The notes: generated by a model from the sequence alone, not told the origin. Shown: positions 21,208-60,143, counted from the stretch's first letter. The stretch is DNA of 64,000 nucleotides from an uncultured Catenibacillus sp. (GCA_934339005.1 CAKRHR010000002.1:41675-105674); one strand, 5' to 3'. Program-made: numbers and translations.

Positions 21208-23007
21208 TTGAAGAAGATTAGGATGAGCAAAAAGATAAGTTCAGGAATTATTGCAGTATTGATGACATTGACGATGTTGGGTGGCCAGACACCTCAGGTA
21301 TATGCCGATGAATATGTATCAGAAACTACAGAGAAAGAAAACTTGTCAGCAGAAAGTACTAATTCTGATGAATCAATGCAGCAAACTGCAGAAACCCAGA
21401 ACACTTTGACTGAAATTGAAAATTCAGGACAAGCTCAGGAAAATTCAGACACAAATGTACTTTCAGAAGGGATAAATGATGATCCGGAAGCATACAGATG
21501 GGAACAAAGGCAGGCAACAATTACAGATGATTACGGTATCGCCCCGTTTGCACTTGAAGATAATATGGATATAGCAGGTTACGGTATTGATGTATCACAA
21601 CATAATGGTGTTATTGATTGGAAAAAAGTCAGAAACTCCGGTGTTGAATTTGCCTTAATTAGAGTTGGTTATAGAGGCTGGGGTCCAAGCGGAACACTGG
21701 TAGAAGATAGCAAAGCACGTCAAAATCTTGAAGGTGCGACAAAAGCCGGGATCAGAGTCGGTGCTTATTTCTTTTCAACAGCAATTACCGAGGAAGAAGC
21801 TAGAGAAGAAGCCCAGTTTACACTTGATATTGTGAAAAATTATGAGATTACATATCCGATTATTTATGACAATGAAGGTATGTATAAAGTATATTACAAT
21901 GGAGAGATGGTAGAAGGCCGGGATTATGATCTGACTGCAGCACAAAGAACGGATATGGCTATTGCTTTCTTAGATTGTATCAGAAATGCAGGGTATTATC
22001 CGATGATGTATGGTAATACAAGCTGCTATAAAAATTATGATGGCAGAGGATTTGAAGTGGGAAGACTTGAAAATCGTTATGATATCTGGGTGGCAGAGTA
22101 TTTTTGGTATGATTCTGATACTAAACAAGAATATCCATCTTTTGAATCAGCCAGAAGCAGAGAAACCACATATACAGGTGTACATAGTATCTGGCAGTTT
22201 TCATCACAAGGTCAGATAGATGGTATTTCAGGCAATGTTGATTTGGATTTTTGTTATAATGATATTTACGACAGTACACGATTAGTCAGACAATTTGTGA
22301 AACGGCTATATACATTGGTTCTTGGACGTGACGCTGATTCTGCAGGTCTTGTGGCGTGGACAGATCAGTTAATTAAGAAGAATAATACAGCTGCAGAAGT
22401 TGCATTTGGATTTGTATATAGTAAAGAGTTTCAGGAGAAGAATTTAAGCGATGAAGATTATATAGACGTTTTATATCAGACATGTCTTGGCAGAGATTCA
22501 GATGCTGTAGGAAAAGCAGCCTGGACAGACTGTTTAAATGGTGGATTTTCAAGAAGATATGTACTTCGCGGGTTTATTGAATCTATGGAATTTTCTGAAC
22601 TCTGTGCAGATGTCGGTATTGAGCGCGGCAGCATAGAGATGATTGAAAATAGAGATAAAAACGACAATACAACAAAATTTGTCAGAAGATGTTATAATGT
22701 ATTCTTAGACAGAGAACCGGATGCAGATGGATTAAATGAGTGGACAGGGCAGATTCTGGAGAATACAGATAATGCAAGAGAAGTTCCTTATGGATTTGTT
22801 TTCTCAAGAGAAATGACAGATAAAAAATTATCAAATGAGGCATTTGTGGCAATACTTTATAAAGGTATTATGGACAGGGAACCGGATGCAGATGGCTTAA
22901 AAGCGTGGACAGCAGTGCTTGATAAGGGTGAATCACGTTATCATGTTTATGAAGGCTTTGTATATTCAAAAGAATTTACAGAATTACTTTCAAAGTATGG
23001 TCTGTAA
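21208..23007 (+). CDS. Secreted GH25 muramidase (lysozyme) with a C-terminal four-repeat DUF4214-type module
   Basis: Signal peptide, acidic/Ser-Thr linker, GH25 block GIDVSQHNGVIDWKKV...GVEFALIRVGYRG, and four repeats of LY..(V/F)L.R..D..G...W. The start is ambiguous: TTG 21208 lies 8 nt after GGAGG; ATG 21193 and ATG 21223 are in-frame alternatives. Confidence 0.85.
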   Translation: MKKIRMSKKISSGIIAVLMTLTMLGGQTPQVYADEYVSETTEKENLSAESTNSDESMQQTAETQNTLTEIENSGQAQENSDTNVLSEGINDDPEAYRWEQRQATITDDYGIAPFALEDNMDIAGYGIDVSQHNGVIDWKKVRNSGVEFALIRVGYRGWGPSGTLVEDSKARQNLEGATKAGIRVGAYFFSTAITEEEAREEAQFTLDIVKNYEITYPIIYDNEGMYKVYYNGEMVEGRDYDLTAAQRTDMAIAFLDCIRNAGYYPMMYGNTSCYKNYDGRGFEVGRLENRYDIWVAEYFWYDSDTKQEYPSFESARSRETTYTGVHSIWQFSSQGQIDGISGNVDLDFCYNDIYDSTRLVRQFVKRLYTLVLGRDADSAGLVAWTDQLIKKNNTAAEVAFGFVYSKEFQEKNLSDEDYIDVLYQTCLGRDSDAVGKAAWTDCLNGGFSRRYVLRGFIESMEFSELCADVGIERGSIEMIENRDKNDNTTKFVRRCYNVFLDREPDADGLNEWTGQILENTDNAREVPYGFVFSREMTDKKLSNEAFVAILYKGIMDREPDADGLKAWTAVLDKGESRYHVYEGFVYSKEFTELLSKYGL

Positions 23008-23092
23008 AAATATTAAAGTTATATGAAAATGTCAGAATAAAGAGAGATTTTATGCCTGATATTATATTAAAAAGATACAGGAGATAGATGTT

Positions 23093-24481
23093 TTGGTCAG
23101 GTTTTTAAAAAAAATAGAAAAATCAATAGTGTTTGTTCTGAAGTCTTTGTTATATGTATGGATTCTTGGCAGTTTCTATTTAATTATGGCGATAGAGAAC
23201 TGGCCGTTGTTGCGTATTTCCCGTACAGCGGGTGTAACTTTACTGACGTTTTGCGCTGTATGGATCGGTATGATTGCTGCTTATGGTACATATGATATCG
23301 GCAAGCGTAAAAGTAAACCGATTATATCATCACTGGCTCTTGCAACAGCGATTACGGATATTGTAACATTTTTGCAGATTTCGATCATGAATACAAATGA
23401 GGCTAATGGCCTTGAGTTTAATCTTGCCAATATAGGCTTATTGGTAATTTCGTATGTAGCGCAGCTTGCAGGAATTATTGTCTTTGTATATGGTGGAAAT
23501 TGGTTGTATTTTCGATTGAATCGACCGGAACGATGTTGCCTGGTAGTATCAAGCAAGGAGGATTTTCTGGAAATTGTGGAAGCAATTAAAAGCTTTCACA
23601 GACAATATAATATTAAATATGTCCGTGGATATCAGGCAGATGATTTGAATACAGTTATGCTAAAGAGTGATACTGTATTTATTTATAATTTGCCTGTTGA
23701 AAAACGAACAGAGATTGTTGAATTTTGTTATCGCAATATGATTAATATTTACTACAATCCTGAAATAGCTGATATTGTAGAGATTAATTCAAAGTTTACA
23801 ATTTTAGATGATGCATCCTTTATTGCATCACCTGTTAAAGAATTATCTTTTGAGCAGCGTGTGATGAAGCGATTTATGGACATTTTATTTTCTGGTGTGG
23901 CATTGATTATTTTATCACCATTAATGATTATATGTGCTATAGCGATTAAAGTTGGCGATGGTGGGAAAGTTATTTTTAAACAGCAGAGAGCAACAAAGGA
24001 TGGCAGGATATTTTCAGTATATAAGTTCAGGACGATGAAAGAAAATGTTGAAAATTATTCTGCACTTGAAGATGATGACAGAATAACAAAGGTTGGAAAG
24101 TTACTGCGCAAATACCGTCTGGATGAACTTCCACAGTTGCTGAATATTCTTAAAGGCGAGATGAGTCTTGTCGGACCAAGACCGGAGATGCTGCGGAATG
24201 TATATATATATACAAAAGAATATCCCGAATTTGAATACAGACTTCGTGTGAAGGCAGGATTGACAGGATATGCACAGATTGCAGGTAAATATAACACTTC
24301 CCCAAAATACAAATTAATCCTCGATTTGATGTATATAGAAAATTATTCTGTTATAAAGGACATTAAATTGATTTTACAGACGCTGATCGTATTTTTTAAA
24401 TCAGACAGTACAGAAGGTTTTGGCCAGCAGACGGATGCATCTGTAAAGAAATACGAAAAAACAATGGATATCAAATTTTGA
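23093..24481 (+). CDS. Polyprenyl-phosphate glycosyl-1-phosphate transferase (WbaP/CpsE-type initiating PGT, large polytopic form)
   Basis: Four or five N-terminal TM helices. C-terminal bacterial sugar-transferase domain (KRFMDILFSG.ALI.LSP...I.AIAIK..DGG.VIFKQ.R....GR.F..YKFRTM; DELPQLLNILKGEMSLVGPRP). TTG start 8 nt after AGGAGA. Confidence 0.85.
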   Translation: MVRFLKKIEKSIVFVLKSLLYVWILGSFYLIMAIENWPLLRISRTAGVTLLTFCAVWIGMIAAYGTYDIGKRKSKPIISSLALATAITDIVTFLQISIMNTNEANGLEFNLANIGLLVISYVAQLAGIIVFVYGGNWLYFRLNRPERCCLVVSSKEDFLEIVEAIKSFHRQYNIKYVRGYQADDLNTVMLKSDTVFIYNLPVEKRTEIVEFCYRNMINIYYNPEIADIVEINSKFTILDDASFIASPVKELSFEQRVMKRFMDILFSGVALIILSPLMIICAIAIKVGDGGKVIFKQQRATKDGRIFSVYKFRTMKENVENYSALEDDDRITKVGKLLRKYRLDELPQLLNILKGEMSLVGPRPEMLRNVYIYTKEYPEFEYRLRVKAGLTGYAQIAGKYNTSPKYKLILDLMYIENYSVIKDIKLILQTLIVFFKSDSTEGFGQQTDASVKKYEKTMDIKF

Positions 24482-24510
24482 TTTTAAGTGATAACGGAGG
24501 CAAATTCGAT

Positions 24511-25272
24511 ATGAAGAAATTGCACGTGACATGCGGAATCGTAACATACAACAATGCGGATATTATTGAAAAATGTATAGGCACCCTTTTGGAGTATACT
24601 AAAGGGTGCAGTATTCGTATATATGTCTACGATAATCATTCATCAGATGGCACAGTAGAATTGATACAAAAGAAGTTTAAACAGGTACGGATAATAGCGA
24701 AGAAGAGTAATAAAGGGTTTGGCTATGGACATAACCGTATTCTTCAATCGTTGCCGCAGGCAGATTATCACATTGTTGTAAATCCGGACATTATGGTAGA
24801 TACAGATGTAGTTACTCAGATGGCAGAGTATATGGAGGCAAATAAAAATATTGGCATATTAATTCCAAAGGTTTTAAATACAGATGGTACAGAACAGTTC
24901 CTGCCAAAGTATCAGCCGAATTTTAAATATGTTATCATGAGTAAATTTAAACACTGGAAATATTACCGGGATATTTATACCCGGAAAAATGACCAGATCA
25001 AAGAACCTGTTAAGTGTGAAAATATATCGGGCAGCTTTTTTATGATACGAAGAAGTCTTGTTGAAGAATTACACGGATTTGATGAACGATATTTTATGTA
25101 CTTTGAAGATGCGGATTTGGCAAGACGTGCTAATCAGAAAACAGATTTGGTTTATAATCCCAACGTTTATGTTTATCATGCATGGAAACGGGATAACACA
25201 GGAAATATCAGAGGTATCTGTATTTTCTTAAAGTCGATGCTTAAATATGCGTTGAAGTGGAAAGGTTTTTAG
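24511..25272 (+). CDS. GT2-family glycosyltransferase (rhamnosyltransferase-like)
   Basis: ..CGIVTYNN..., DNHSSDGT and ..FFMIRR....LHGFDERYFMYFEDADL. ACGGAGG RBS before ATG 24511. Confidence 0.8.
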   Translation: MKKLHVTCGIVTYNNADIIEKCIGTLLEYTKGCSIRIYVYDNHSSDGTVELIQKKFKQVRIIAKKSNKGFGYGHNRILQSLPQADYHIVVNPDIMVDTDVVTQMAEYMEANKNIGILIPKVLNTDGTEQFLPKYQPNFKYVIMSKFKHWKYYRDIYTRKNDQIKEPVKCENISGSFFMIRRSLVEELHGFDERYFMYFEDADLARRANQKTDLVYNPNVYVYHAWKRDNTGNIRGICIFLKSMLKYALKWKGF

Positions 25273-25282
25273 GTAAGAGCAG

Positions 25283-26233
25283 ATGAAGATTCAGGTAGAT
25301 ATCTTAATGGCTGTATATAATGGCGAAAAATATCTTGAAGAACAATTGGCATCAATTGCAGAACAGACATATCAGGACTGGCACCTGATTATCAGAGATG
25401 ATGCTTCAACGGATAGAAGTATGCAAATTATAAAAGCTTTCCGGGATAAATATCCTGAAGGTAAAGTTGAGGTATATAAAAATGAGCCTGCTTCGGGATC
25501 TGCAAAAAATAATTTTTGTAAACTAATCCAGGATGCGAAAGCAGAGTATGTGATGTTCTGCGATCAGGATGATGTATGGATTTCTGATAAAATTGAACAG
25601 ACGCTAAAACAGATGCGCAGGCAGGAGATAAAAAATGGCTCTAAACAAGTACCGGTGCTGGTGCATTCGGATTTGTATGTTGTTGATGAACATTTAAATA
25701 TTATATCGGATTCGATGCAGAAATATCAGAAATTACCAAAAACTTCAAGTATACAGCGTTTGTTAATTCAAAATCATGTAACTGGCTGTACGATGATGGT
25801 CAACAGGTCTTTAATGGATTATTTGAAGCGGGCAGAGGATACAACTGCAATAGTTATGCATGATTATTGGGCAGCACTTATTGCAATGGTATTTGGAACA
25901 ATTGTTTTTATCCCCAGACCAATGATTAAATACCGTCAACATGGGGATAACTCCGTAGGCGCGATGAATGCAGCGGGGATAAAGTATTTATATATCAGAT
26001 TTAAAGCAGGAAGAAAGCAGTTTAGAGAACGAACAGAAGCAACGATGCTGCAGGCACGGGCCTTTTGTAAAGTATATGAATATGAATTAAGTAAAAATCC
26101 ATACAAAGATTTAATTAAAGCGTATTCAGAATTGACGGAAACGACTAAAATGCATAAAATAGAGTTTTATATATCGAAACACGTAACGAAATATGGTATA
26201 ATTAGAAAGATAATGCAATTTATTTGGAGTTGA
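25283..26233 (+). CDS. GT2-family glycosyltransferase
   Basis: ILMAVYNGEKYLEEQLASIAEQTYQDWHLIIRDDASTDRS, then the DQDD acidic motif. Confidence 0.8.
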   Translation: MKIQVDILMAVYNGEKYLEEQLASIAEQTYQDWHLIIRDDASTDRSMQIIKAFRDKYPEGKVEVYKNEPASGSAKNNFCKLIQDAKAEYVMFCDQDDVWISDKIEQTLKQMRRQEIKNGSKQVPVLVHSDLYVVDEHLNIISDSMQKYQKLPKTSSIQRLLIQNHVTGCTMMVNRSLMDYLKRAEDTTAIVMHDYWAALIAMVFGTIVFIPRPMIKYRQHGDNSVGAMNAAGIKYLYIRFKAGRKQFRERTEATMLQARAFCKVYEYELSKNPYKDLIKAYSELTETTKMHKIEFYISKHVTKYGIIRKIMQFIWS

Positions 26234-26237
26234 AAAG

Positions 26238-27500
26238 ATGAGTATACAACAAAAAATAATGTCAGGCGCAGATAAAATTAAGCCTGTATTAAAAAAAATA
26301 CTGCCTCAGAAATTTTTGAGTCAGGTTAAAAATAATATGCTTGATAAACAATTGAATACCATATTAACACAAAAAAGATTGCCATTTGAGAGAGAATGTT
26401 ATCCTGATGGTATTAATCTGATTGGTCTTGTACGTGCTGAGATGGGATTGGGACAAAGCTGCAGATTGATGGCGTCAATGATTGACCATACAAAATATCC
26501 GCTGATGCTTTATGATTTTAATCTCGGCAGTGAACTTTTGCGCTCAGAAGACCATTCATATGATGATAAGATTTCTGATGAATTAAAATATAATGTAAAT
26601 CTCATTCATATTAATCCGGATGAGATGAAATTATTATATACAAGAATGAACAGGGAAAATTTTGATAAACATTACAATATTGCATTCTGGCTGTGGGAAC
26701 TGGAAGATATTCCAAAATCATGGCAAACGTATTTCCCGATGTTGGATGAGATTTGGACACCATCGGAATTTATCAGCAATAGTCTGAGAAAAGTAACCGA
26801 TCTTCCTGTACGCACAATCCCGTATTGCGTGAAGGCACCGGTAAAAGATGAATATTCAAGAAGTTATTTCGGACTTCCAGAGGATCAGTTTTTGTTTCTG
26901 GCGATGTATGATTCCAACAGTACCAGAGAACGAAAAAATCCTATGGGAGCCATTTTGGCGTTTAAAACAGCTTTTGAGCGGGGTAATAAAGATGTTGGTC
27001 TGGTACTTAAGATCAACAATGCCAGAGATGAAGATATTACTTTATTAAAGAGTATGCTTGAAGGTTATGACAATATATATTATATCACGCAGACAATGAG
27101 TAAAGTTGAAGTAAACAGTCTGATCAAAGATGTAGATGTGTTTATTTCTATGCACAGAGCAGAAGGATTCGGCCTTGTAATGGCAGAAGCTATGTTAAAT
27201 GGCACACCAGTGATTGCTACAGACTGGTCATCAAATACAGAATTTATGAATCAAGATGTTGCATGCATGGTTGATTATACTTTTGTGACATTGAAAGAAG
27301 ATTTTCCACCATATAAGGCTGGAGCGGTATGGGCAGATCCAAATCCGGATACAGCTGCGGATTATATGAAAAAGTTATATAGTCAGCCTGAATTTTACAG
27401 AGAAAAAGCTCAAAAAGCTCAAACATATATTACAGATAAATTAAGTATGGGCAAAGCTGTTGAACTAATTGAAAAACGTATGGAGGAAATATATGATTAA
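26238..27500 (+). CDS. GT4 (GT1-fold) glycosyltransferase
   Basis: C-terminal E-x7-E signature EGFGLVMAEAMLNGTPVIATD. Confidence 0.75.
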   Translation: MSIQQKIMSGADKIKPVLKKILPQKFLSQVKNNMLDKQLNTILTQKRLPFERECYPDGINLIGLVRAEMGLGQSCRLMASMIDHTKYPLMLYDFNLGSELLRSEDHSYDDKISDELKYNVNLIHINPDEMKLLYTRMNRENFDKHYNIAFWLWELEDIPKSWQTYFPMLDEIWTPSEFISNSLRKVTDLPVRTIPYCVKAPVKDEYSRSYFGLPEDQFLFLAMYDSNSTRERKNPMGAILAFKTAFERGNKDVGLVLKINNARDEDITLLKSMLEGYDNIYYITQTMSKVEVNSLIKDVDVFISMHRAEGFGLVMAEAMLNGTPVIATDWSSNTEFMNQDVACMVDYTFVTLKEDFPPYKAGAVWADPNPDTAADYMKKLYSQPEFYREKAQKAQTYITDKLSMGKAVELIEKRMEEIYD

Positions 27501-28272
27501 ACATTTAAAAGAAATTTATGCGTATCGACAGATGATATTCAGTTTGGTCAGGAAGGAATTAAGGGGTCGATACAAAGGATCCGTATTAGGATTTTTGTGG
27601 ACATTTATTAATCCGCTGCTTCAATTGATGGTGTATACATTCGTATTTTCAATCGTATTACCGAATAACATTGATAAGTTTTATCTCTACCTGTTTGTAG
27701 GTCTTGTGCCGTGGTTATTTTTCAGCGGTTCCATGACAGGCGGTGCGGCATGTATCGTAAACCAGAAAGATATGGTAAAGAAAATTTACTTTCCGAGAGA
27801 AGTTATGCCGATATCCTATGTAGCCAGTGGATTTGTTAATATGCTGTTTTGCTTCATCGTTATTTTTGCAGTAATCATCGTTTCAGGTGTAGGTGTGAAT
27901 CCGGTAGCATTATTGTATCTTCCGGTGATTATGATTGTTGAGTTTATTATGGCACTCGGCGGGGCGATGCTTACATCTGCATTGACAGTTTATTTTAGGG
28001 ATTTGGAATACATTCTGGGTATTTTAACAATGGCCTGGATGTATTTTACACCGGTCGTATATTCTATGGAGATGGTACCAGACTGGATTAAACCATATTT
28101 TAATCTTAACCCAATGACACCGGTAATTAATGCATATAGAGATATTTTGTATTATAAACAAGTACCGCACTTGTCAACACTGGTGCAGGGACTGGTGCTT
28201 GGAATTATTGTCCTTATTATTGGTAGTATTTCATTTAGAAAACTTCAGAGAGGCTTTGCGGAGGAACTGTAA
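27493..28272 (+). CDS. ABC-2-type polysaccharide/teichoic-acid export permease (Wzm/TagG/RgpC-like)
   Basis: ..YRQMIFSLVRKELRGRYKGSVLGFLWTFINPLL.. is the ABC-2 signature, with six TM helices. ATG 27493 follows GGAGGA and overlaps the upstream stop. Confidence 0.88.
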   Translation: MIKHLKEIYAYRQMIFSLVRKELRGRYKGSVLGFLWTFINPLLQLMVYTFVFSIVLPNNIDKFYLYLFVGLVPWLFFSGSMTGGAACIVNQKDMVKKIYFPREVMPISYVASGFVNMLFCFIVIFAVIIVSGVGVNPVALLYLPVIMIVEFIMALGGAMLTSALTVYFRDLEYILGILTMAWMYFTPVVYSMEMVPDWIKPYFNLNPMTPVINAYRDILYYKQVPHLSTLVQGLVLGIIVLIIGSISFRKLQRGFAEEL

Positions 28273-29594
28273 TGATAGATAAGAATAATTCAATCGAAGT
28301 TCGTGATGTGACGAAAAAATTTAAAGTTTATTTTGATAAAGGCGCACAGCTTAAAGAACGATTATTATTCCGTAATCGAAACAGATATGAAGAACGCTGG
28401 GTATTAAACGGTGTCAGCTTCAATGTCAAAAAAGGTGAAGCCATTGGTTTGATCGGACATAACGGATGCGGAAAAAGTACAACTTTAAAGCTTTTGACAA
28501 GAATTATGTATCCGGATTCAGGTACCATTGAGATGCAGGGACGTGTATCCAGTCTGATTGAACTTGGTGCAGGATTTCATCCGGATATGAGTGGCCGTGA
28601 AAATATTTATACGAATGCTGCCATTTTTGGATTGACAAAAAAAGAAATTGATGAACGTTTGGATGATATTATCGAATTTTCGGAGATGGCACCGTTTTTG
28701 GATAATCCGGTACGAACATATTCATCCGGTATGTATATGCGACTGGCATTTTCTGTAGCCATTAACGTGAATGCAGATATTTTGTTAATTGATGAGATCC
28801 TGGCTGTTGGTGATGTGAATTTCCAGGCAAAGTGCTTTAATAAACTTAGAGAAATTAAGGCGCAAGGTACAACAATTGTGATCGTATCACATTCAATGGG
28901 TCAGATTGAACAGATTTGTGACCGAACTATATGGATTCATGATGGAAAAATCAAGATGGAGGGTAAACCAAGAGATGTAGACCCAGCCTACCTTGATTTT
29001 ATGGGTCAGCAAAGACAGGATATTGCACAGCAGGCGCAAAAGCATCAGGAACAAAAAGCCCAGGCACAGAAAGAAAAAGAACAGAAAAAGACTGAAGATA
29101 AATCGAATGATGTTAGCGCGGCTGAAGTCGAAGCGAATACGAAAAAGGCTGAAAACAGTGAAAAATTAAAGAAACGCTGGGGAAATGGTAAAGCCAGAAT
29201 TACATCAGTAAAAATGTGTGATGCAAGTGGTCAGAAAAAGACAGTGTTTTCTACAGGCGAGCAAGTTTCTATATGTTTAGAATATGAACTGATTGAAAAA
29301 GTTCAGGATGCTGTTTTTGGTATTGGTATTTTCAGAGGTGATGGGCTTCAGTGTTATGGTACGAATACACGTATTGAGCAATTTGATAAATTTGACCTTA
29401 CAAAAGATGGAAATGTAAAAATCAATATTGACCAGATGAATCTACTTCCAGGACAATACACACTGGATATTGCGATTGAGTCAGATGATGCGACACCTGT
29501 AGATTATTATAAAGAGTCTTATAAATTTGAGATATTCTCAAGCATTGGTGATGTCGGGGTTGCAAGACTTGGTCATACATGGGAGGTAGAATAA
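28272..29594 (+). CDS. ABC polysaccharide-export ATPase (Wzt/TagH/RgpD-like) with a Q/K/E-rich linker and a C-terminal Wzt-C-like putative glycan-binding domain
   Basis: Walker A GHNGCGKST, signature YSSGMYMRLAF and Walker B ILLIDE. A charged linker of about 70 aa (QQRQDIAQQAQKHQEQKAQAQKEKEQKK..), then a roughly 140-aa beta-rich domain (ARITSVKMCDASG..FSTGEQVSICLEY..). TAATG overlap with the permease. Confidence 0.85.
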   Translation: MIDKNNSIEVRDVTKKFKVYFDKGAQLKERLLFRNRNRYEERWVLNGVSFNVKKGEAIGLIGHNGCGKSTTLKLLTRIMYPDSGTIEMQGRVSSLIELGAGFHPDMSGRENIYTNAAIFGLTKKEIDERLDDIIEFSEMAPFLDNPVRTYSSGMYMRLAFSVAINVNADILLIDEILAVGDVNFQAKCFNKLREIKAQGTTIVIVSHSMGQIEQICDRTIWIHDGKIKMEGKPRDVDPAYLDFMGQQRQDIAQQAQKHQEQKAQAQKEKEQKKTEDKSNDVSAAEVEANTKKAENSEKLKKRWGNGKARITSVKMCDASGQKKTVFSTGEQVSICLEYELIEKVQDAVFGIGIFRGDGLQCYGTNTRIEQFDKFDLTKDGNVKINIDQMNLLPGQYTLDIAIESDDATPVDYYKESYKFEIFSSIGDVGVARLGHTWEVE

Positions 29595-30523: not shown

Positions 30524-30538
30524 AAACCTTGGAGGTAT

Positions 30539-31030
30539 ATGATGGAAGAACAGATGAAATCAATTAACGTTGAAGAAATCATGGCAGAAATTCGCCTGAA
30601 TATAGAAAAAAGAGGGGAAACACCGGATATTTTAGATTTTGATGAGGCCGAGGCTGACAAAGTGTGTGCGGGTGGCTTTAAGGGCAGCGTGCGCTATGAT
30701 GAAAATGTATTACATCAGGCACTTTCAAGAGCAAATGAAGAACATAATATTCCATATTATCAGATGATTCCTGCCGGCGGCTTTAAATCTTTTGTCAAAC
30801 GCAGTATCCGAAAAGTCATTGCATTTATCGTGCTGCCGCTCAGAGATGCGCAGAATCGTTATAATGCATATACAGTCGAGACAATGATGCAGTTAGAAGC
30901 ATGTACATTGATGCAGCAGGAGATGCTTAAAAAGCAGGAAGAAGATCTGGAAAAAATGACAGAACGTCTTCAGAAATTGGAAAAGAAATGTGAACAGTTA
31001 CTTTCCGAAAGAGAAAATGGAGAAATGTAA
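30539..31030 (+). CDS. Hypothetical soluble coiled-coil protein (163 aa)
   Basis: No TM segment. C-terminus ..MQQEMLKKQEEDLEKMTERLQKLEKKCEQLLSERENGE. The ATG doublet at 30539/30542 follows GGAGG. No family recognised. Confidence 0.55.
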   Translation: MMEEQMKSINVEEIMAEIRLNIEKRGETPDILDFDEAEADKVCAGGFKGSVRYDENVLHQALSRANEEHNIPYYQMIPAGGFKSFVKRSIRKVIAFIVLPLRDAQNRYNAYTVETMMQLEACTLMQQEMLKKQEEDLEKMTERLQKLEKKCEQLLSERENGEM

Positions 31031-35051: not shown

Positions 35052-35096
35052 GGTGATTTACCTATTATAAAAATCTGGATAAAAAGAGGATGAAAG

Positions 35097-35834: not shown

Positions 35835-35878
35835 ATTTATCAGAACTTAGACAATAACAAACAAAGGGGTATTTGCAG

Positions 35879-37063: not shown

Positions 37064-37103
37064 AATGATAGAAGTGATTTATATAAACTGAGGAACATAC
37101 ACA

Positions 37104-43916: not shown

Positions 43917-43917
43917 C

Positions 43918-46007: not shown

Positions 46008-46018
46008 CGAGGAAAAAA

Positions 46019-47554: not shown

Positions 47555-47564
47555 GGGAAATGAC

Positions 47565-49274: not shown

Positions 49275-49322
49275 CCACAATAATTTAATTATATAAAAGA
49301 TAGTATTTAGAGGATTTTATTT

Positions 49323-50267: not shown

Positions 50268-50351
50268 AAAAGTTTTATTGTTATGAAAAAAGAAGTAAGC
50301 ATCTGAGAATGGTGAAACAGCAAGAAATTCTTAAAAAAATAAGTAATACAA

Positions 50352-52309: not shown

Positions 52310-52365
52310 GTGTTATATAGAGAGTAAGTGCTCACTTTAAAAAAGTAAGAAGGGGTGTGCAGTGG

Positions 52366-54066
52366 ATGTCAAAGATGTTGAAATTACCGATAGGTATTGA
52401 AAATTTTCAAGAGATGCGGCAATCTGGATTTTATTATGTTGATAAGACAAAATTGATTGAACAGTTGCTTGAACGATGGGGCAAAGTAAATCTTTTTACC
52501 AGACCCCGGAGATTTGGAAAGACTTTAAATATGAGCATGCTTCGATATTTTTTTGAAATTGATACAGATAAAAAGCTGTTTGATGGTTTATATATTTCAT
52601 ATAATGAAAAGCTTTGTGAAGAATATATGGGAAAATATCCTGTTATTTTTATTTCTTTAAAAAATGTTGAAGGTTTGTCTTTTGAGGAAGCACAGTATCA
52701 GTTGGTTGAATTGATTGGTATGGAGGCAGAACGTTTTCATTTTATATTAGAGAAAGAAAGATTGACCGATAATGAAAAGAAGAAATATCGTGCTTTAATA
52801 GAATTGCAGCACGGGAAATATTCTATGGATAAAGACATGCTCATTTCATCATTACAGGTTTTATCACAGCTTTTATATAAATTTTATGGAGAAAAAGTAA
52901 TCTTATTAATAGATGAGTACGATGTACCTTTGGATAAAGCTTTCCAGCATGGCTATTACAAGGAAATGGTTGCGTTGATCCGTGCATTATTTGGAAAAGT
53001 ACTGAAAACAAATGATTTTCTGCAGTTTGCAGTACTGACAGGATGTTTGCGCGTTTCAAAAGAAAGCATATTTACAGGACTTAACAATTTTAAGGTGCTT
53101 TCTATTACGGATGTACGGTTTGATGAACAATTTGGATTTACAGAAGAAGAAGTGAAAAAACTTCTGGAATCATATCATATGGAATCACATCTGGCAGAAA
53201 TGAAAAAATGGTATGACGGTTATCATTTTGGGGATACAGATGTGTATTGTCCGTGGGATGTGCTTAATCATGTAGATTGTCTTTGTGATGATCCGCAGGC
53301 ACATCCACAGTCGTATTGGATTAATACGAGTGGAAATGATTTAGTAAAGCGTTTTATTAATAAAGCTGATAAAAAAACAAAAGATGAAATAGAACGACTC
53401 GTTGCCGGTGAGATAATTGAAAAGCCTGTTCGTTTGGATTTGACCTATGATGAAATAGATCATCGTATAGATAATCTGTGGAGTGTGTTATTTACAACCG
53501 GATATCTTACACAGGATGGAATGTCGGAGAATGGTGTGTACAAATTAAAAATTCCTAATGAAGAAGTTAAGGAAGTTTATATGTATCAAATACAGGAATG
53601 GTTTAAAAATGTAGTACTGGGGGATACAGAACAGTTAACAGTTTTCTGGAAAGCGTTTGAAAGTGGAAATGCTGGATATGTTGAACAATATCTGGTTAGA
53701 GTACTGAATCAGACGATAAGCGTGTTTGATACGAAGGGACAAGCGTTAGAAAAAGAAAATGTTTATCACACGTTTTTGTTGGGTCTTTTGTCAGGTAATG
53801 CTAATTGGTTAGTTAAATCCAATATTGAATCAGGGGATGGATTTGCTGATATCATTATAGAAACAGAGCAGCCTGATTCTGGAATGATTATTGAACTGAA
53901 ATATTCCAAATCATTTTCTGGATTAGAAAAGTCTTGTAAAGATGCGATCGCCCAGGTCAGAAATCGCAGATATGATACTTATCTTAAGAATGATGGGCGT
54001 CAGAATATATTAGTGTATGGCATAGCTTTTTGCAAGAAAAAGTGTAAAGTGATGATTGAGGAATAA
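52366..54066 (+). CDS. AAA-ATPase-like (PF09820-type) plus C-terminal PD-(D/E)XK (PDDEXK_9-type) protein, function unknown
   Basis: N-terminus ..KLPIGIENFQEMRQSGFYYVDKTKLIEQLL....NLFTRPRRFGKTL. C-terminal ..GDGFADIIIE...(8)..IIELKYS (D..E.K). ATG 52366 lies 10 nt after AAGGGG; the in-frame GTG 52357 is less likely. Confidence 0.8.
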   Translation: MSKMLKLPIGIENFQEMRQSGFYYVDKTKLIEQLLERWGKVNLFTRPRRFGKTLNMSMLRYFFEIDTDKKLFDGLYISYNEKLCEEYMGKYPVIFISLKNVEGLSFEEAQYQLVELIGMEAERFHFILEKERLTDNEKKKYRALIELQHGKYSMDKDMLISSLQVLSQLLYKFYGEKVILLIDEYDVPLDKAFQHGYYKEMVALIRALFGKVLKTNDFLQFAVLTGCLRVSKESIFTGLNNFKVLSITDVRFDEQFGFTEEEVKKLLESYHMESHLAEMKKWYDGYHFGDTDVYCPWDVLNHVDCLCDDPQAHPQSYWINTSGNDLVKRFINKADKKTKDEIERLVAGEIIEKPVRLDLTYDEIDHRIDNLWSVLFTTGYLTQDGMSENGVYKLKIPNEEVKEVYMYQIQEWFKNVVLGDTEQLTVFWKAFESGNAGYVEQYLVRVLNQTISVFDTKGQALEKENVYHTFLLGLLSGNANWLVKSNIESGDGFADIIIETEQPDSGMIIELKYSKSFSGLEKSCKDAIAQVRNRRYDTYLKNDGRQNILVYGIAFCKKKCKVMIEE

Positions 54067-54424: not shown

Positions 54425-57070
54425 ATGAAAAGCAAAAGAATTTTGGCACTTATGATGAGTATGGCAATGGCATCAAGTATTGCAATGCCTGTAGCAGCAG
54501 AAACACCAGAAGGAGAACAGACAGTCGTAGATATTGAAAATATATCTGTCGATGAAAGCGAAGATGTATTGGAAGATTCAGATGAAGAGAGTGGTGTAGT
54601 AGAAAATTTTGCAAACAATGTGGAAACGGTTGATGAGAAAGAAGCCGTTGAACCTCAGATTGAAAATCAGGCAAATACCGGAGATGAAGTGCAGGTATTA
54701 GATAGTACAGATAGTGCTGCTGAGGATTCAAAGTGTGGTGAAAATGCAACCTGGACACTGCAGGATGGAGTATTGCATATTTCTGGTACTGGTGCTATGG
54801 ATGATTATCAATATGAGTATGAGGGGGATGCCAATACACCATGGTATAGTCGTAAAGATGAAATTAACACTATTGTGATTGATGATGGTATAACATATAT
54901 TGGTGCATCCGCTTTTTATCATTTGGAAAATGTAGTTAGTGTATCTATACCTGAGAGCGTTACAGTTCTTGGTGATGGTGCATTTTATGAATGTACAGGT
55001 TTAGTTAAAGTAACATTGCCAAGAGCGATGAAAACAATAGGAGAAGGTGCTTTTTATAGTTGTACATCATTGATAGAAATTAATATGCCTGAAAGTTTAA
55101 GTGAATTGTCTGGAAGTGCATTTTATAATTGTACAAGTTTGAAAGAAATTTCAATACCGCAAGGAATAACAGGAATTGAAATGGCAACATTTGCGGAATG
55201 CACTAGTTTGGAAACTGTTATATTGCCAGAAGGGATAAATAAAATTGGTTGGCAAGCATTTTTGAATTGCATAAATCTATCAAAAATAGTGTTACCAGAA
55301 ACAATAAAGACAATAGAAAATAGTGCATTTACAAATTGTGAGTCATTAACTGAAATTAATATACCAGAAAGTGTAACTACTATACAAGATTATGCTTTTG
55401 CGGGATGCACGAGTTTAAAAAGCGTTGTAATACCAAATAGTATAACAAGTTTACCTTATAAGATATTTTCTGGATGTAGTAGCTTAGAAAAAGTTACCCT
55501 TCCAGAAGGCTTGATTACGATTTATCCAAGTGCATTTTCTGAATGTAGCAGTTTAACAGGAATTATACTGCCGGGTTCAGTTAAAGAAATATGGTGGGAG
55601 TCATTTAAAAATTGTACAAGTTTAAAGAAGATCACAATTCCGGATGGAGTAGCCTATATTGCAAATAATCTTTTCAATGGCTGTACGAGTTTGACAGAAG
55701 TTAATCTGCCTGTAACGATAAACAGTATCCAAAATTGTGCTTTTGATAATTGTACAAACTTAAAGAGAATTAATTATGCAGGAACTGAGGAAAATTGGTC
55801 TGAAATAAGCATTGATTCAGATAATGAAGGACTTTCTAATGTAACAATATGTTATGAGAACACTGGAAATTCATGTGGTGAAAATGCAACGTGGACGCTG
55901 CAGGATGGAGTATTACATATTTCTGGTACTGGTGCTATGGATGATTATGATTATGATAATACAAAGGCGCCTTGGTATGGTGTGAAAGATCAAATCACAT
56001 CTATTATTATTGATAATGGCATAACATCTATCGGTGATTTCACGTTTACAGAATTAATCAATTTAGCATCAGTTGAAATTCCTGATAGCGTAACAGATAT
56101 AGAAATAAGGGCTTTTGATGGATGTACCAATCTGAAAAAATTGATTTTACCTAAAACATTGAAAATTGTTGGAGATGGTGCATTCAATAATTGTACAAAT
56201 TTAGAGGATGTTTATTATGCGGGTGCAGAATCTGATAGAGTAAATCTTAATATTGCTCAGGGAAATGACCTTTTAATAAATGCAACCTGGCACTATGAAA
56301 CAACTTCTGATAAACCGGAGGACAAACCAGAAGTTAAAGATTCAGAAGAAGCTTTTGTAGACCGTTTATATCAAAATATATTAGGTCGGGATTCTGATCC
56401 TGCAGGTGCAAAGGCATGGACAGAAGAATTACAGTCTGGTGAAAAAACAGGTGTAGAAGTCGCACAGGGATTTTTTGAAAGCGATGAGATGAAAAAACGT
56501 GAGTTTACCGATGAAGAATACATCAATGCATTATATTTGACTTTCCTGAATCGAGAGGCAGATGCATCTGGTATGGCTGCATGGAAAGCTGTGTTAGATA
56601 GTGGTTTATCAAGAATGCATGTATTTAAAGGTTTTGCAGAATCACAGGAATTTACAGTAATCTGTGATAATTATGGCATTGAGAGGGGGAATGCTGATCT
56701 GACCGCACCAAGAGATCAAAATGAAGGTGTAACTAAATTTATTGCGAGAAATTACAAAATGTGTCTTGGACGTTCGGCAGATGAAGATGGTATCAATGCA
56801 TGGTGTAATCAGATTTTAACAGGACAGAATACTGCCAAAGAAGTAGCGTATGGATTTGTATTTTCACAGGAATTTAAAGAAAAGAACCTTTCAGATGCTG
56901 ACTTCGTTAAATTACTGTACAACGTTTTTATGAATCGTGAAGCGGACGAAGCAGGTTTTAATGCATGGATGAAAGTTCTGAAGGATGGACAGAGTCGAGA
57001 ACATGTCTTTAATGGTTTTGCAGATTCTGTAGAATTCAGAGATGTATGCACAGGTTATGGCATACAATAA
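54425..57070 (+). CDS. Secreted BspA-type leucine-rich-repeat (LRR_5) surface protein with a C-terminal four-repeat DUF4214-type module
   Basis: Signal peptide MKSKRILALMMSMAMASSIAMPVAA. Acidic linker. Two CGENATWTLQDGVLHISGTG cap units. Twelve plus about four 23-aa repeats (..I...AF..CTSL..I.IP..). DUF4214 repeats from about 56354. Confidence 0.88.
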   Translation: MKSKRILALMMSMAMASSIAMPVAAETPEGEQTVVDIENISVDESEDVLEDSDEESGVVENFANNVETVDEKEAVEPQIENQANTGDEVQVLDSTDSAAEDSKCGENATWTLQDGVLHISGTGAMDDYQYEYEGDANTPWYSRKDEINTIVIDDGITYIGASAFYHLENVVSVSIPESVTVLGDGAFYECTGLVKVTLPRAMKTIGEGAFYSCTSLIEINMPESLSELSGSAFYNCTSLKEISIPQGITGIEMATFAECTSLETVILPEGINKIGWQAFLNCINLSKIVLPETIKTIENSAFTNCESLTEINIPESVTTIQDYAFAGCTSLKSVVIPNSITSLPYKIFSGCSSLEKVTLPEGLITIYPSAFSECSSLTGIILPGSVKEIWWESFKNCTSLKKITIPDGVAYIANNLFNGCTSLTEVNLPVTINSIQNCAFDNCTNLKRINYAGTEENWSEISIDSDNEGLSNVTICYENTGNSCGENATWTLQDGVLHISGTGAMDDYDYDNTKAPWYGVKDQITSIIIDNGITSIGDFTFTELINLASVEIPDSVTDIEIRAFDGCTNLKKLILPKTLKIVGDGAFNNCTNLEDVYYAGAESDRVNLNIAQGNDLLINATWHYETTSDKPEDKPEVKDSEEAFVDRLYQNILGRDSDPAGAKAWTEELQSGEKTGVEVAQGFFESDEMKKREFTDEEYINALYLTFLNREADASGMAAWKAVLDSGLSRMHVFKGFAESQEFTVICDNYGIERGNADLTAPRDQNEGVTKFIARNYKMCLGRSADEDGINAWCNQILTGQNTAKEVAYGFVFSQEFKEKNLSDADFVKLLYNVFMNREADEAGFNAWMKVLKDGQSREHVFNGFADSVEFRDVCTGYGIQ
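54950..55780 (+). repeat. Twelve consecutive 69-nt (23-codon) coding tandem repeats (BspA-like LRR units)
   Basis: The translated periodicity can be read directly: PESVTVLGDGAFYECTGLVKVTL / PRAMKTIGEGAFYSCTSLIEINM / PESLSELSGSAFYNCTSLKEISI ... The units are diverged at the DNA level. Confidence 0.85.
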
Positions 57071-57106: not shown

Positions 57107-58327
57107 ATGAAAAAAGTCAAATATTTATCAGGAACGGTAGTTGCCATTATATTGACCATTGGTTTATCAATACCATCATTTGCTGCAGAAATAGAAAGTG
57201 AATATACAGACGAGGATGCTTTCCAGATTGAGTACAATCTGGAAAGTGAATCCGAGATGGATGATGCAGCTGATGAGGAAAACAAAGAAATATTGTCAGA
57301 TGTAGATGCTGATGATCAGAATGATAATGGTAATATAGAAAATATTGCAGAAGAAGCAAATTTTGAATATGCACCGCAGGCACAAAGTGATCCTGTAAAG
57401 GATTTTGTAGAGCGATTATATACACAGATTCTTGGACGTGCTGCAGATCCTTTAGGATTACAGTCATGGACGGATGTGCTGAAATCAGGTAAAGAACAGG
57501 GCGCAAAAGTTGCACAGGGCTTTATCGACAGTGCAGAATTTAAAGCAAGACCGTTAAGCAATGAAGAATACTTAAAAATCTTATATCGGACATTCTTTGA
57601 CCGTGAACCGGATGGCGCAGGACTGGAAGCATGGCTTGGTGTGCTGGACAGTGGCTTATCAAGACTACATGTCTTTAAAGGATTTGCTGAATCCCAGGAA
57701 TTTACAGAAATCTGTGAAAAATATGGTATTATCCGTGGCAATGCACAGTTGACTGCACCATGTGACCAGAATGAAGGCGTGACAAAGTTTATTGTGAGAA
57801 ACTATCGTCTTTGCCTTGGTAGAAACGCGGATGAAGATGGTTTAAATGGCTGGTGCAACGCAATCCTTACAGGACAAAATACAGCGAAACAGGCGGCACA
57901 TGGATTTGTATTCTCAGATGAATTCAAAAAGAAAAATCTGTCTGATACAGAATATGTTAAGACATTATACCGAGTATTTATGGACAGAGAAGCCGATGGT
58001 GCAGGATTAGAAGCATGGGTTAAAGTTCTGAGAAATGGACAAAGCCGAGAACATGTATTTAATGGATTTGCGGATTCAGACGAGTTTAAGAAAATCTGCA
58101 TAAGTTATGGACTTAAGGTGGAAAATGACAAATTAAGTCAAAATACAAATACACAACCAAGTCAGGGCAGTGGAACACATAGTCCTAATTATACATATAT
58201 TTATGATGATGGACGTAAAGAAAATTATTATATTGATTATGCTACTGGTGATATAACAAATACTGATACTGGAGAAACTGATAATATGTATAATAATCCA
58301 TTCTTTGGTGAATATCAAGGTAAATAA
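57107..58327 (+). CDS. Secreted protein made only of a signal peptide, an acidic linker, a four-repeat DUF4214-type module and a Tyr/Asn/Asp/Thr-rich tail
   Basis: MKKVKYLSGTVVAIILTIGLSIPSFA. GGAGGA lies 6 nt before ATG 57107; the longer TTG 57074 ORF is not favoured. DUF4214 repeats span 57404 to about 58117. Confidence 0.85.
   Translation: MKKVKYLSGTVVAIILTIGLSIPSFAAEIESEYTDEDAFQIEYNLESESEMDDAADEENKEILSDVDADDQNDNGNIENIAEEANFEYAPQAQSDPVKDFVERLYTQILGRAADPLGLQSWTDVLKSGKEQGAKVAQGFIDSAEFKARPLSNEEYLKILYRTFFDREPDGAGLEAWLGVLDSGLSRLHVFKGFAESQEFTEICEKYGIIRGNAQLTAPCDQNEGVTKFIVRNYRLCLGRNADEDGLNGWCNAILTGQNTAKQAAHGFVFSDEFKKKNLSDTEYVKTLYRVFMDREADGAGLEAWVKVLRNGQSREHVFNGFADSDEFKKICISYGLKVENDKLSQNTNTQPSQGSGTHSPNYTYIYDDGRKENYYIDYATGDITNTDTGETDNMYNNPFFGEYQGK
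57698..58076 (+). repeat. About 380-nt segment nearly identical to 59721-60099 (dispersed direct repeat inside two DUF4214 genes)
   Basis: Hand alignment at a constant offset of 2023 nt shows only a handful of mismatches, including an uninterrupted identical run of about 270 nt. Confidence 0.9.
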
Positions 58328-58403
58328 GGACATAGAAAGATTATGTAATATGTTTCTATTGTATCAGCTTTACAATGTTTATTAAATATAAGGATGAAAA
58401 ATT

Positions 58404-60143
58404 ATGAATAAAAGAATTTTAAGCGCAATGCTGGCAATATCATTAATTGCAGCATCAGGTGTGCCACAGTATGCATGGGCAGAAGAAAATGTGAATGCAG
58501 TTTCAGAAAGTGAAAGTACAGTTGAAGAATTACGACCAGAAAGTATTGATGAAAATACTGTTGAAGCGTATTTATCGGAAGGAATACAGGAAAATAATCA
58601 AGTAGATGAAGATGTATTGGTAGCAGGTGAATCAGAAAATACGTTAAATATTCAAAATTCACCAGATAACAGAACTGCGAATAAATGTGGTGAAAATGCA
58701 ACTTGGACATTAAGTAATGGCGTATTACATATTTCTGGTACAGGTGATATGCAAGATTATTCGGAAAATGCACCATGGTTTGATCAAAAAAATGACATTA
58801 TATCTATTGAAATAGATGATGGAATAACATCAATTGGTAGTTTCGCTTTTGCACAGTTGGAGAATTTATCTAATGTATCTATGGCAGATAGTATTATTCA
58901 TATTAAGGATTATGCATTTTTTGATTGCTCAAAATTACAAAAAATTTCATTATCAAAGAATTTGCAAGCTATTTGGAATGGTACATTTGGATCATGTGAT
59001 AGTTTACAAGAAATTGATATGCCTAATAGTGTAATATTTATAGGAGTGGATGCATTTGCATATTGCAAAAGTCTGAAAAAAGTAAAATTATCAAGTGGAT
59101 TGACAGAAATAACAAACAGATCGTTTAGTAATTGTACAGGGTTAGAAGAAATAGAATTTCCCAAAGGTGTTCAGCTGATAGATCAGCTTGCATTTATGGA
59201 ATGTGTAAATTTAAATAAGATTATTTTGCCAATATCTGTTAAACAAATTCTGGGGGCATTTATTCATTGTGAAAATATACATGATGTTTATTATGAAGGT
59301 ACGGAAGCTGATAGAAGCAATATAGAAGAAAATGTAGGAGAAATAAGATTTGACAACGGTTCTTTAAATGAGGCAACATGGCATTATGAAACAACTTCTA
59401 ATGTAACACTAGATCCAGTCGAAGCCTTTGTCAGCCGCTTATACAAAAATATTTTAGGTCGTGATGCAGATGCTTCCGGTTTGAAAGCATGGTCAGATGT
59501 TTTGAAATCTGGTAAAGAACAGGGTGCTAAAGTTGCGCAGGGATTTGTGGATAGCCAGGAAATGAAAAATCGTAAATTGTCAGATGATGATTATATTAAA
59601 GCTTTATATCAGACTTTCCTGAATCGAGAAGCAGATGCAGCAGGATTGGCAGCATGGAAGAATGTTTTGGATAGTGGATTGTCAAGAATGCATGTATTTA
59701 AAGGTTTCGCAGAATCTCAGGAATTTACAGAGATCTGTGAAAAATATGGTATTATCCGTGGCAATGCACAGTTAACTGCACCATGTGACCAGAATGAAGG
59801 CGTGACAAAGTTTATTGTGAGAAACTATCGTCTTTGCCTTGGTAGAAACGCGGATGAAGATGGTTTAAATGGCTGGTGCAACGCAATCCTTACAGGACAA
59901 AATACAGCGAAACAGGCGGCACATGGATTTGTATTCTCAGATGAATTCAAAAAGAAAAATCTGTCTGATACAGAATATGTTAAGACATTATACCGAGTAT
60001 TTATGGACAGAGAAGCCGATGGTGCAGGATTAGAAGCATGGGTTAAAGTTTTGAAAAATGGACAGAGCCGAGAACATGTATTTAATGGATTTGCGGATTC
60101 TAATGAATTTAGAGAAATCTGCGCACGTTACGGAATCAAATAA
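58404..60143 (+). CDS. Secreted BspA-type LRR surface protein with a C-terminal four-repeat DUF4214-type module
   Basis: Signal peptide MNKRILSAMLAISLIAASGVPQYAWA. CGENATWTLSNGVLHISGTG cap. About six LRR_5 units. DUF4214 repeats from about 59427. Confidence 0.88.
   Translation: MNKRILSAMLAISLIAASGVPQYAWAEENVNAVSESESTVEELRPESIDENTVEAYLSEGIQENNQVDEDVLVAGESENTLNIQNSPDNRTANKCGENATWTLSNGVLHISGTGDMQDYSENAPWFDQKNDIISIEIDDGITSIGSFAFAQLENLSNVSMADSIIHIKDYAFFDCSKLQKISLSKNLQAIWNGTFGSCDSLQEIDMPNSVIFIGVDAFAYCKSLKKVKLSSGLTEITNRSFSNCTGLEEIEFPKGVQLIDQLAFMECVNLNKIILPISVKQILGAFIHCENIHDVYYEGTEADRSNIEENVGEIRFDNGSLNEATWHYETTSNVTLDPVEAFVSRLYKNILGRDADASGLKAWSDVLKSGKEQGAKVAQGFVDSQEMKNRKLSDDDYIKALYQTFLNREADAAGLAAWKNVLDSGLSRMHVFKGFAESQEFTEICEKYGIIRGNAQLTAPCDQNEGVTKFIVRNYRLCLGRNADEDGLNGWCNAILTGQNTAKQAAHGFVFSDEFKKKNLSDTEYVKTLYRVFMDREADGAGLEAWVKVLKNGQSREHVFNGFADSNEFREICARYGIK
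59721..60099 (+). repeat. Partner copy of the 57698-58076 near-identical segment
   Basis: See 57698-58076. Downstream, 60081-60143 instead matches the 3' end of the 50437-52203 gene (52141-52203) at 60/63 nt. Confidence 0.9.

Follow-up and report, generated by a model that had tools for sequence, protein, structure and literature searches.

Secreted proteins that carry repeats of the domain DUF4214 (PF13946) have been described in settings that bear on the locus analysed here, a glycan locus in an uncultured Catenibacillus sp. with genes for such proteins as neighbours. The stretch of DNA analysed (64,000 nucleotides (nt), GCA_934339005.1 CAKRHR010000002.1:41675-105674; hereafter the window) encodes five proteins, A to E, that share one four-repeat DUF4214 tail. 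The domain was defined on the 'Cluster.1' secreted proteins of segmented filamentous bacteria (SFB), which have four conserved C-terminal regions, and the likeness of these proteins to phycobilisome (PBS) linkers was already noted in 2012 (Pamp et al. 2012, PMC3371716). DUF4214 has been called a likely surface-anchoring domain (PMC12780176; bioRxiv 10.64898/2026.04.29.720676), a proposal also found in the context of PMC3371716, and the host takes up SFB proteins of this kind, which serve as T-cell antigens (bioRxiv 10.64898/2026.04.29.720676). The surface-anchor idea is already in the SFB literature, as a proposal.

In Gram-negative bacteria, DUF4214 occurs in RTX-type S-layer-like proteins, and for the Pseudomonas putida RTX-DUF4214 protein Psh, which is encoded near O-antigen genes, an O-antigen coat has been proposed (bioRxiv 10.64898/2026.09.02.748959, September 2026). 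Binding of Psh to O-antigen rests on modelling and phenotype, and the authors did not see a Psh-type glycan-locus neighbourhood outside Gammaproteobacteria (bioRxiv 10.64898/2026.09.02.748959). An earlier account of the window, made from its sequence without database searches (the sequence-only reading), took DUF4214 to be without an assigned function. This is correct in that both surface anchoring in SFB and O-antigen binding by Psh are proposals only, and it overlooks that they had been made.

In Bacillus anthracis and Paenibacillus, SLH, a small helical repeat module on S-layer proteins and wall enzymes, binds non-covalently to a pyruvylated secondary cell wall polymer (SCWP), and the polymer genes lie near those of the surface proteins. 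Clostridioides difficile has the CWB2/PSII system, with many paralogues that combine a triple-repeat anchor with varied heads, including amidases and adhesins; part of the CWB2 genes are clustered beside the polymer-synthesis locus and the rest are dispersed. Lachnospiraceae are among the most abundant human gut bacteria, and in SFB the domain is found on major T-cell antigens.

For the window, the tail is best explained as a putative non-covalent module of cell-envelope retention, composed of two predicted PBS-linker-like helical domains with two DUF4214 repeats each. After Sec export, it would keep a large paralogous protein set at the surface of this Lachnospiraceae clade, including peptidoglycan enzymes (here a GH25 muramidase), CAP/YkwD proteins, and adhesin-like proteins with BspA-type leucine-rich repeats (LRR) or Ig domains, with the acidic linker as a spacer. 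The candidate ligand is a conserved wall glycan, the backbone of which would come from the conserved 5' half of the adjacent locus, dependent on an ATP-binding cassette (ABC) transporter, and would perhaps have GDP-mannose or a GDP-6-deoxyhexose as its precursor. The 3' decoration, which varies between strains, would not be the ligand. Taken as a whole, a retention module with a conserved wall glycan as its most likely ligand has about an even chance of being right. Judged from sequence, wall retention by the tail is likely, a glycan ligand of any kind falls a little short of an even chance, and the product of the adjacent locus as that ligand is a tentative and rather doubtful proposal. The five proteins, with domains assigned by Pfam (for protein D, by Pfam and alignment), are as follows:

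21193-23007, plus strand: protein A, with signal peptide, acidic linker, GH25 muramidase and DUF4214 tail (tail at about nt 22279-23004)
50437-52203, plus strand: protein B, with signal peptide, acidic linker, CAP/YkwD domain, Big_3 domain and DUF4214 tail (tail at about nt 51472-52200)
54425-57070, plus strand: protein C, with signal peptide, acidic linker, BspA-type LRR arrays and tail (tail at about nt 56339-57067)
57107-58327, plus strand: protein D, headless, with signal peptide, acidic linker, tail and a C-terminal extension of 69 amino acids (aa) (tail at about nt 57389-58117)
58404-60143, plus strand: protein E, with signal peptide, acidic linker, BspA-type LRR and tail (tail at about nt 59412-60140)

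The start of protein A is placed at 21193; gene callers also use 21208. Each protein contains exactly four DUF4214 stretches, with E-values from 7e-57 (protein A) to 5e-61 and scores of 190-203 bits against a gathering cut-off of 23.2. Alignment of the C-terminal parts gives a common module of 243 aa, which is 65-84% identical among the B, C, D and E copies and 45-49% identical to the A copy. The heads comprise GH25 in A (E 6e-27), CAP (6e-15) and Big_3 (4e-5) in B, four LRR_5 blocks in C (8e-112) and two in E (1e-44), while Pfam found no head domain in D. All five N-termini are basic and then hydrophobic with an AXA-type cleavage site, and are read as Sec signal peptides; directly after them come linkers with 38-55% D+E+S+T. 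No LPXTG-like motif occurs in the five proteins, which end in the hydrophilic tail (in D, in a hydrophilic extension), and Pfam gave no match in them to SLH (PF00395), CWB2 (PF04122), LysM or choline-binding repeats (PF01473/PF19127). The sequence-only reading had described five open reading frames (ORFs) with Sec signals and acidic linkers, a common four-repeat tail, unrelated heads and none of these known anchors, and all of this is borne out. It had also placed the tail at the very end of all five proteins, as is the case in A, B, C and E but not in D. The extension of D (residues 338-406) is rich in Tyr, Asp and Asn, and 65-150 residues beyond the tail are also found in many other headless relatives.

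Within the tails, there are also sub-threshold NCBIfam matches to acylphosphatase (e.g. B residues 539-575), scoring about 17-24 bits against cut-offs of 92-117. An acylphosphatase identity is spurious at such scores, and these weak matches probably explain the public 'acylphosphatase' misannotation of one Catenibacillus scindens DUF4214 protein.

Wall retention is suggested by the company that the tail keeps. Among 59 tail proteins from about 13 genomes, the partner domains were CAP (12), YkuD L,D-transpeptidase (9), Transglut_core (6), Big_3 (6), LRR_5 (4), Flg_new (4), choline-binding repeats (4), Big_2 (3), polysaccharide deacetylase (2) and Amidase_3 (2), with one each of GH5, NlpC/P60, PG_binding_1, beta-lactamase-like, GDSL and Ltp. 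A second census of 57 unrelated representatives gave LRR_5 (10), NlpC/P60 (4), Big_2 (4), choline-binding repeats (4), YkuD (3), GH25 (2), CAP (2) and PG_binding_1 (2), and one each of M23, M14 and VgrG3-like_C. The two independent censuses agree, and short-protein searches found further partners (Phage_lysozyme2 (PF18013), NlpC/P60, GH25 and Amidase_3). One conserved module placed on many enzymes of the producer's own peptidoglycan and on adhesin-type repeats has the appearance of a classic wall-retention signature. The family is large: with clusters at 50% identity, a search with the tail profile reached 6,818 representatives at E<=1e-30, a number that rises to 24,161 at E<=1e-10. In these proteins, the tail is either C-terminal or N-terminal, right after the signal peptide, and some have six to eight DUF4214 repeats.

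An AlphaFold2 model of the tail, built with 43 diverse tails as input, is all-helical with 16 helices (mean pLDDT 96.8, pTM 0.88). Foldseek matches each half of the tail, about 110 aa with two DUF4214 repeats, to individual PBS-linker domains (3osj, 2ky4, 3ohw and 3pru) with a probability of 1.0, a target-normalised TM-score of 0.5-0.6 and a root-mean-square deviation of 3.6-3.9 Å. Pfam also gave PF00427 matches in 28 of the 57 unrelated tail relatives, and a sequence profile search of the PDB gave weak phycobilisome matches only (ApcE, E 1e-4). On the model, the '2+2' repeat layout that the sequence-only reading had described corresponds to two predicted PBS-linker-like domains. That reading had pointed to a PF13946 search and structure prediction for the module, which returned the expected four DUF4214 stretches in each protein but a PBS-linker-like helical fold with no carbohydrate-binding match. 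A PBS-linker function for the tail proteins was rejected, as they have Sec signal peptides and belong to non-photosynthetic Lachnospiraceae; the fold alone is common to both.

The glycan locus between A and B (23093-50267) can be divided into three parts, the first two assigned with Pfam and NCBIfam and the third with Pfam and composition:

23093-33300, plus strand: conserved 5' part, with a phosphoglycosyl transferase (PGT), two GT2 glycosyltransferases, a GT4 glycosyltransferase, Wzm, Wzt with Wzt_C, a methyltransferase, a coiled-coil protein and two further GT4 enzymes
33318-40605, plus strand: middle part, with a DUF6311 membrane protein, a small GT2, a GT4, an 814-aa protein with multiple transmembrane (TM) segments, and a GtrB-like GT2 with TM segments
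40608-50267, plus strand: strain-variable 3' part, with, in order, GT4, GT2, GT4, GT4, GT2, a Wzx flippase, a 569-aa membrane protein and an Acyl_transf_3 protein

About 14 GT2 and GT4 enzymes are encoded in this locus. Its PGT is of the WbaP/EPS type (Bac_transf 3e-63, and above the TIGR03025 cut-off), Wzm matches ABC2_membrane (1e-21), the Wzt_C match has an E-value of 9e-33, and Methyltransf_23 (3e-15) is followed by a 163-aa coiled-coil ORF. The components of an ABC-transporter-dependent capped glycan pathway are present, namely Wzm, Wzt with Wzt_C, a terminating modifier and an initiating transferase, with the methyltransferase as the presumed chain terminator. The PGT, GT2 and GT4 enzymes, Wzm, Wzt with Wzt_C, and the methyltransferase with its coiled-coil partner as terminator would form the machinery for the backbone. 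Two small GT2 enzymes of the polyprenyl-phosphate type are each paired with a large multi-TM protein (the DUF6311 protein and the 814-aa protein), and these pairs would correspond to a polyprenyl-phosphate-sugar synthase and an extracytoplasmic transferase. The 3' part (about 40400-50267) has a GC content of 27-34% against 35-42% elsewhere. Overall, the layout fits an ABC-transporter-dependent, end-capped polymer with extracytoplasmic side chains and a variable, Wzx-dependent part. Neither an LCP ligase nor nucleotide-sugar genes were found within the window, no pyruvyl-transferase family was found among the locus proteins with Pfam, and no gmd operon lies in the window or in the approximately 7.6 kb past its end in strain L030 (L numbers are our handles for the genomes compared).

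Tail genes elsewhere are associated with glycan genes in two ways. When GTDB species representatives were scanned with a tail alignment of close relatives, 26 loci emerged in about 12 Lachnospiraceae genomes, including Catenibacillus scindens, Frisingicoccus, Hominifimenecus, Ca. Onthocola and several metagenome-assembled genomes; the sample is narrow, since such an alignment recovers only close relatives (52-80% identity). The 10-kb flanks of these loci were screened with all glycan proteins of the window, and an unbiased Pfam count of 134 flanking ORFs placed nucleotide-sugar enzymes at the top of the neighbours (GDP_Man_Dehyd/Epimerase 12, NTP_transferase 7). In nine genomes (L001, L002, L003, L005, L014, L016, L020, L021 and L033; e.g. 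L002 3172-8880), an operon of manC, gmd and a short-chain reductase ends at or overlaps the gene for a YkuD protein of 720-880 aa that has six DUF4214 repeats. The arrangement is kept across several Lachnospiraceae genera, and more tail genes follow the YkuD-DUF4214 gene. Gmd scores above its equivalog cut-off (485 versus 415). For the third gene, Fcl was rejected (57 versus a cut-off of 500), and its product is probably an Rmd-like reductase that yields a GDP-6-deoxyhexose. The coupling of GDP-6-deoxyhexose synthesis with a wall cross-linking L,D-transpeptidase was unexpected. In addition, L033 has GT2+DUF6311 pairs, like the pair in the window, enclosed by a cluster of tail genes. Tail genes also cluster with one another, in tandem arrays of up to seven (seven in 18 kb in L014), and C. 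scindens has at least 17 of them in at least 11 places on 10 contigs.

The second association concerns the locus itself. PGT homologues were viewed in their genomic context in three further lineages, in which the 5' genes have the same order and encode proteins 38-81% identical to those of the window (tblastn). The nearest named PGT relatives are from Frisingicoccus sp. (66-68% identity). Frisingicoccus sp. (PGT 68%) and a very prevalent third lineage (PGT 65%) have the order RecD2, GH25-DUF4214, PGT, GT2, GT2, GT4, Wzm, Wzt, methyltransferase, coiled-coil protein and three GT4 genes. The gap between the GH25-tail gene and the PGT gene is 29-39 nt in these two and 29-85 nt over all three lineages including the window, so that in three of four lineages, the PGT gene of this locus type is directly preceded by a GH25-DUF4214 gene. 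The positional counterparts of protein A in L040 and L042 (head 32%, tail 48% identity) are far more diverged than the locus genes.

Two neighbouring genes, both assigned with Pfam, complete the surroundings of the tail genes in this co-directional, low-GC (27-43% by composition scan) stretch of Firmicutes chromosome:

19958-21139, plus strand: membrane-anchored polysaccharide deacetylase with four choline-binding-type repeats, between RecD2 and protein A
52357-54066, plus strand: AAA-ATPase_like + PDDEXK_9 gene, between protein B and proteins C to E

Because the deacetylase carries choline-binding repeats, the organism uses at least two kinds of wall-binding repeat; the deacetylase lies next to RecD2 also in L028 and L038. 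The sequence-only reading had one tail gene immediately upstream and four immediately downstream of the glycan locus. This is the case for A and for B, whereas C, D and E follow the AAA/PDDEXK gene. Promoter and terminator scans remained at shuffle level and are uninformative on co-transcription.

The downstream part of the cluster varies between strains. Protein B is present in every strain context seen, and its 90% cluster has 42 members (37 for A), compared with 1, 2 and 5 for C, D and E, so that C stands alone. In L029, the segment corresponding to window 42523-50299 is 98% identical, with the same 3' glycan genes, and B is accompanied by an additional AAA/PDDEXK gene and a further CAP-DUF4214 gene. 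In L030/L031, the 10 kb upstream of B are replaced by unrelated DUF2142, Wzx, three GT2 and DUF2304 genes (L030 1-9860), and RecQ follows directly after B. As the B tail of L030 joins straight to what in the window comes after the E tail (L030 11066-15619), the AAA/PDDEXK gene, C, D and the head of E are a strain-specific indel flanked by two copies of the tail. An exact stretch of 276 nt recurs in the D and E tails (57752-58027 and 59775-60050), which are otherwise about 86% identical; tail-coding DNA behaves like a recombination handle. Past the window end, related strains have a gene for a 1074-aa DUF4214 protein (L030 15819-19043) and, on the opposite strand, one for an approximately 750-aa protein with LRR, Big_2 and tail (L030 19267-21516); the tail-gene cluster is larger than the window shows. 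AAA-ATPase_like + PDDEXK_9 genes are found at junctions of variable segments, both in the window (52357-54066 on the plus strand and 62282-63961 on the minus strand) and in L027, L029 and L030. They differ in number and integrity among strains, with fragments in L029, and may be mobile or mark a recombination hot spot.

A number of findings weigh against a glycan-binding anchor fed by the adjacent locus, beginning with the tail itself. The sole PDB matches of the predicted fold in Foldseek are PBS linkers, which are protein-protein adaptors, and no carbohydrate-binding structure in the PDB was matched. Invariant tail positions (Y..R, G, W and S.E(F/Y)) recur in PBS-linker domains in the PDB profile search; because the linkers have them too, these residues mark the fold and not a sugar site. 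The isoelectric points of the tails, 4.6-6.9, offer no electrostatic indication of affinity for an anionic polymer. Headless members (signal peptide, tail and short extension) are abundant, with clusters of 95-260 sequences, which is odd for a pure anchor, and some proteins have choline-binding or PG_binding_1 modules beside the tail. No phage lysin with this tail, which would have spoken strongly for a wall-binding role, was found by tblastn in 50,697 phage genomes or in IMG/VR; BFVD yielded only generic DUF4214 proteins of phages and giant viruses. In the literature, no experimental ligand was found for any DUF4214 protein.

The gene neighbourhoods add to these points. Within 10 kb, a PGT occurs at one of the 26 tail loci and a GT2 at one other, leaving 25 without a PGT, which, by the test that the sequence-only reading had set, speaks against a general physical linkage of tail genes to glycosyltransferase loci. 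The closest lineage (PGT 74%; L038/L039 8812-9918) has the UDP-galactopyranose mutase gene glf in the GH25-tail slot and no tail gene there; in that lineage, glf suggests galactofuranose in the polymer. RecD2 keeps its place beside the locus no less well, so that common descent of the gene order may account for some of the adjacency. Moreover, C, D, E and the AAA/PDDEXK gene (52357-54066) are missing in L030 and L031 of the same species. As regards the variable part of the locus, the B tail is identical at 240 of 243 positions in L030 despite the unrelated 3' glycan genes, and any ligand from the locus must therefore be the conserved backbone; the strain-variable 3' decoration was rejected as ligand. 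Anchoring to the locus product thus has moderate support where the conserved 5' half is concerned; for the variable 3' half, there is no support. Of the original idea that the tail anchors its proteins to the glycan of the adjacent locus, the varied secreted heads and the recurrent links to glycan genes speak for it, but the linkage is not general and the cassette is strain-specific.

Four other explanations need to be weighed against retention by a wall glycan. The tail could bind peptidoglycan itself, as PG_binding_1, LysM or SH3b do, with the glycan locus a mere syntenic neighbour. The dominance of GH25, YkuD, NlpC/P60, Amidase_3, M23 and deacetylase among the partners would suit this, as would the mostly dispersed position of tail genes away from glycan loci and the conservation of the tail whatever the variation of the locus. 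We nevertheless regard it as improbable: PG_binding_1 or choline-binding repeats beside the tail in some members suggest another ligand for the tail, and it would leave unexplained why tail genes recur beside manC-gmd and the PGT locus. It is highly improbable that the flanking proteins are substrates rather than binders, their Ser/Thr-rich acidic linkers being glycosylated by the locus through a pathway of the S-layer-glycan type. The combination of a WbaP-like PGT, Wzm/Wzt and a methyltransferase does resemble S-layer glycan clusters, the linkers are 38-55% D/E/S/T, and the polyprenyl-phosphate GT2 enzymes match PgfS and AglJ weakly. However, these scores are far under the cut-offs, neither Pfam nor NCBIfam detected a Wzy_C or O-oligosaccharyl-transferase domain in any locus protein, and the common tail would have no explanation.

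A protein-protein role for the tail, in S-layer-like self-assembly or in docking on a common protein scaffold, takes the structural matches at face value: all of them are phycobilisome linkers, which dock inside phycobiliprotein rings. Headless members in large clusters, proteins with six to eight repeats and the occurrence of DUF4214 in RTX-type S-layer-like Gram-negative proteins (bioRxiv 10.64898/2026.09.02.748959) point the same way. This too has a small chance, since the flank surveys found no candidate partner gene conserved beside tail genes and the linkage to nucleotide-sugar genes is not accounted for. Finally, the proteins might be released, with the tail binding an external target (host mucus, dietary glycan or other bacteria) or merely stabilising them. 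L,D-transpeptidases, amidases and deacetylases work on the wall of the cell that makes them, and a single highly conserved module on varied cargo argues for one self ligand, so we hold release to be decidedly improbable, even though BspA-LRR, CAP, GH5, ricin-lectin and Ig-like partners would suit contact with the surroundings and SFB DUF4214 proteins are host-internalised T-cell antigens (bioRxiv 10.64898/2026.04.29.720676).

A more specific form of the wall-glycan explanation can also be stated. The DUF4214 double domain may be a previously unrecognised anchor that binds a secondary wall glycan, specific for a methyl-capped, ABC-exported backbone (possibly a mannan or 6-deoxyhexan) and constituting the main surface display of a large gut Lachnospiraceae clade and, by extension, of SFB. 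It would display wall enzymes, adhesins and immunodominant antigens, and the tail DNA would serve as a recombination handle for head swapping. In this full form, the proposal is speculative and on balance unlikely. Should the tail prove to anchor proteins to the wall through a defined glycan, the few known Gram-positive anchors (SLH, CWB2, choline-binding, LysM and GW) would gain one more, and a family of tens of thousands of domain proteins would acquire a function. Surface proteomes would become predictable from sequence, and a tag would be available for surface display or labelling of hard-to-culture commensals. A link to the O-antigen coat recently proposed for the Pseudomonas protein Psh would follow as well.

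Compared with known systems, the tail proteins are most like those of SFB Cluster.1, which are likewise secreted, have unrelated heads and four C-terminal DUF4214 regions with a predicted PBS-linker-like fold, and come from a member of the Clostridia without the usual wall-binding domains. In contrast, the proteins described here are from Lachnospiraceae, many have peptidoglycan-enzyme heads, and their genes are linked to an ABC-type glycan locus and to gmd operons; for SFB, neither a ligand nor a glycan-locus link has been reported. Psh resembles them as a secreted DUF4214 protein that is encoded near a surface-glycan (O-antigen) locus and is proposed to sit on the glycan, but it is an RTX-domain protein of a Gram-negative bacterium, exported through a type I secretion system (T1SS). 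The tail proteins differ from SLH proteins in having no SLH motif, an unrelated fold and a locus without a pyruvyl transferase, and from CWB2 proteins in having no PF04122 match and an all-helical tail instead of the CWB2 alpha/beta fold. The system falls outside both SLH-SCWP and CWB2-PSII in every membership feature compared; it is functionally similar to both and a member of neither.

The glycan locus has its closest likeness in the Escherichia coli O9a polymannan and the Pseudomonas aeruginosa D-rhamnan common polysaccharide antigen (CPA), which likewise combine Wzm, a Wzt that ends in a carbohydrate-binding domain, several GT4 enzymes and a methyltransferase paired with a coiled-coil protein. 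Glycans of the O9a/CPA type usually draw on GDP-mannose, gmd and a reductase for their precursors, and here the gmd operon was not found within the window. Further differences are the Gram-positive host, a Bac_transf PGT instead of WecA, and the added Wzx-dependent variable part. In its layout, the locus resembles the two-part wall-polysaccharide loci of enterococci, streptococci and lactococci, and the replacement of its 3' part between strains is reminiscent of the variable regions of the enterococcal epa and lactococcal cwps loci.

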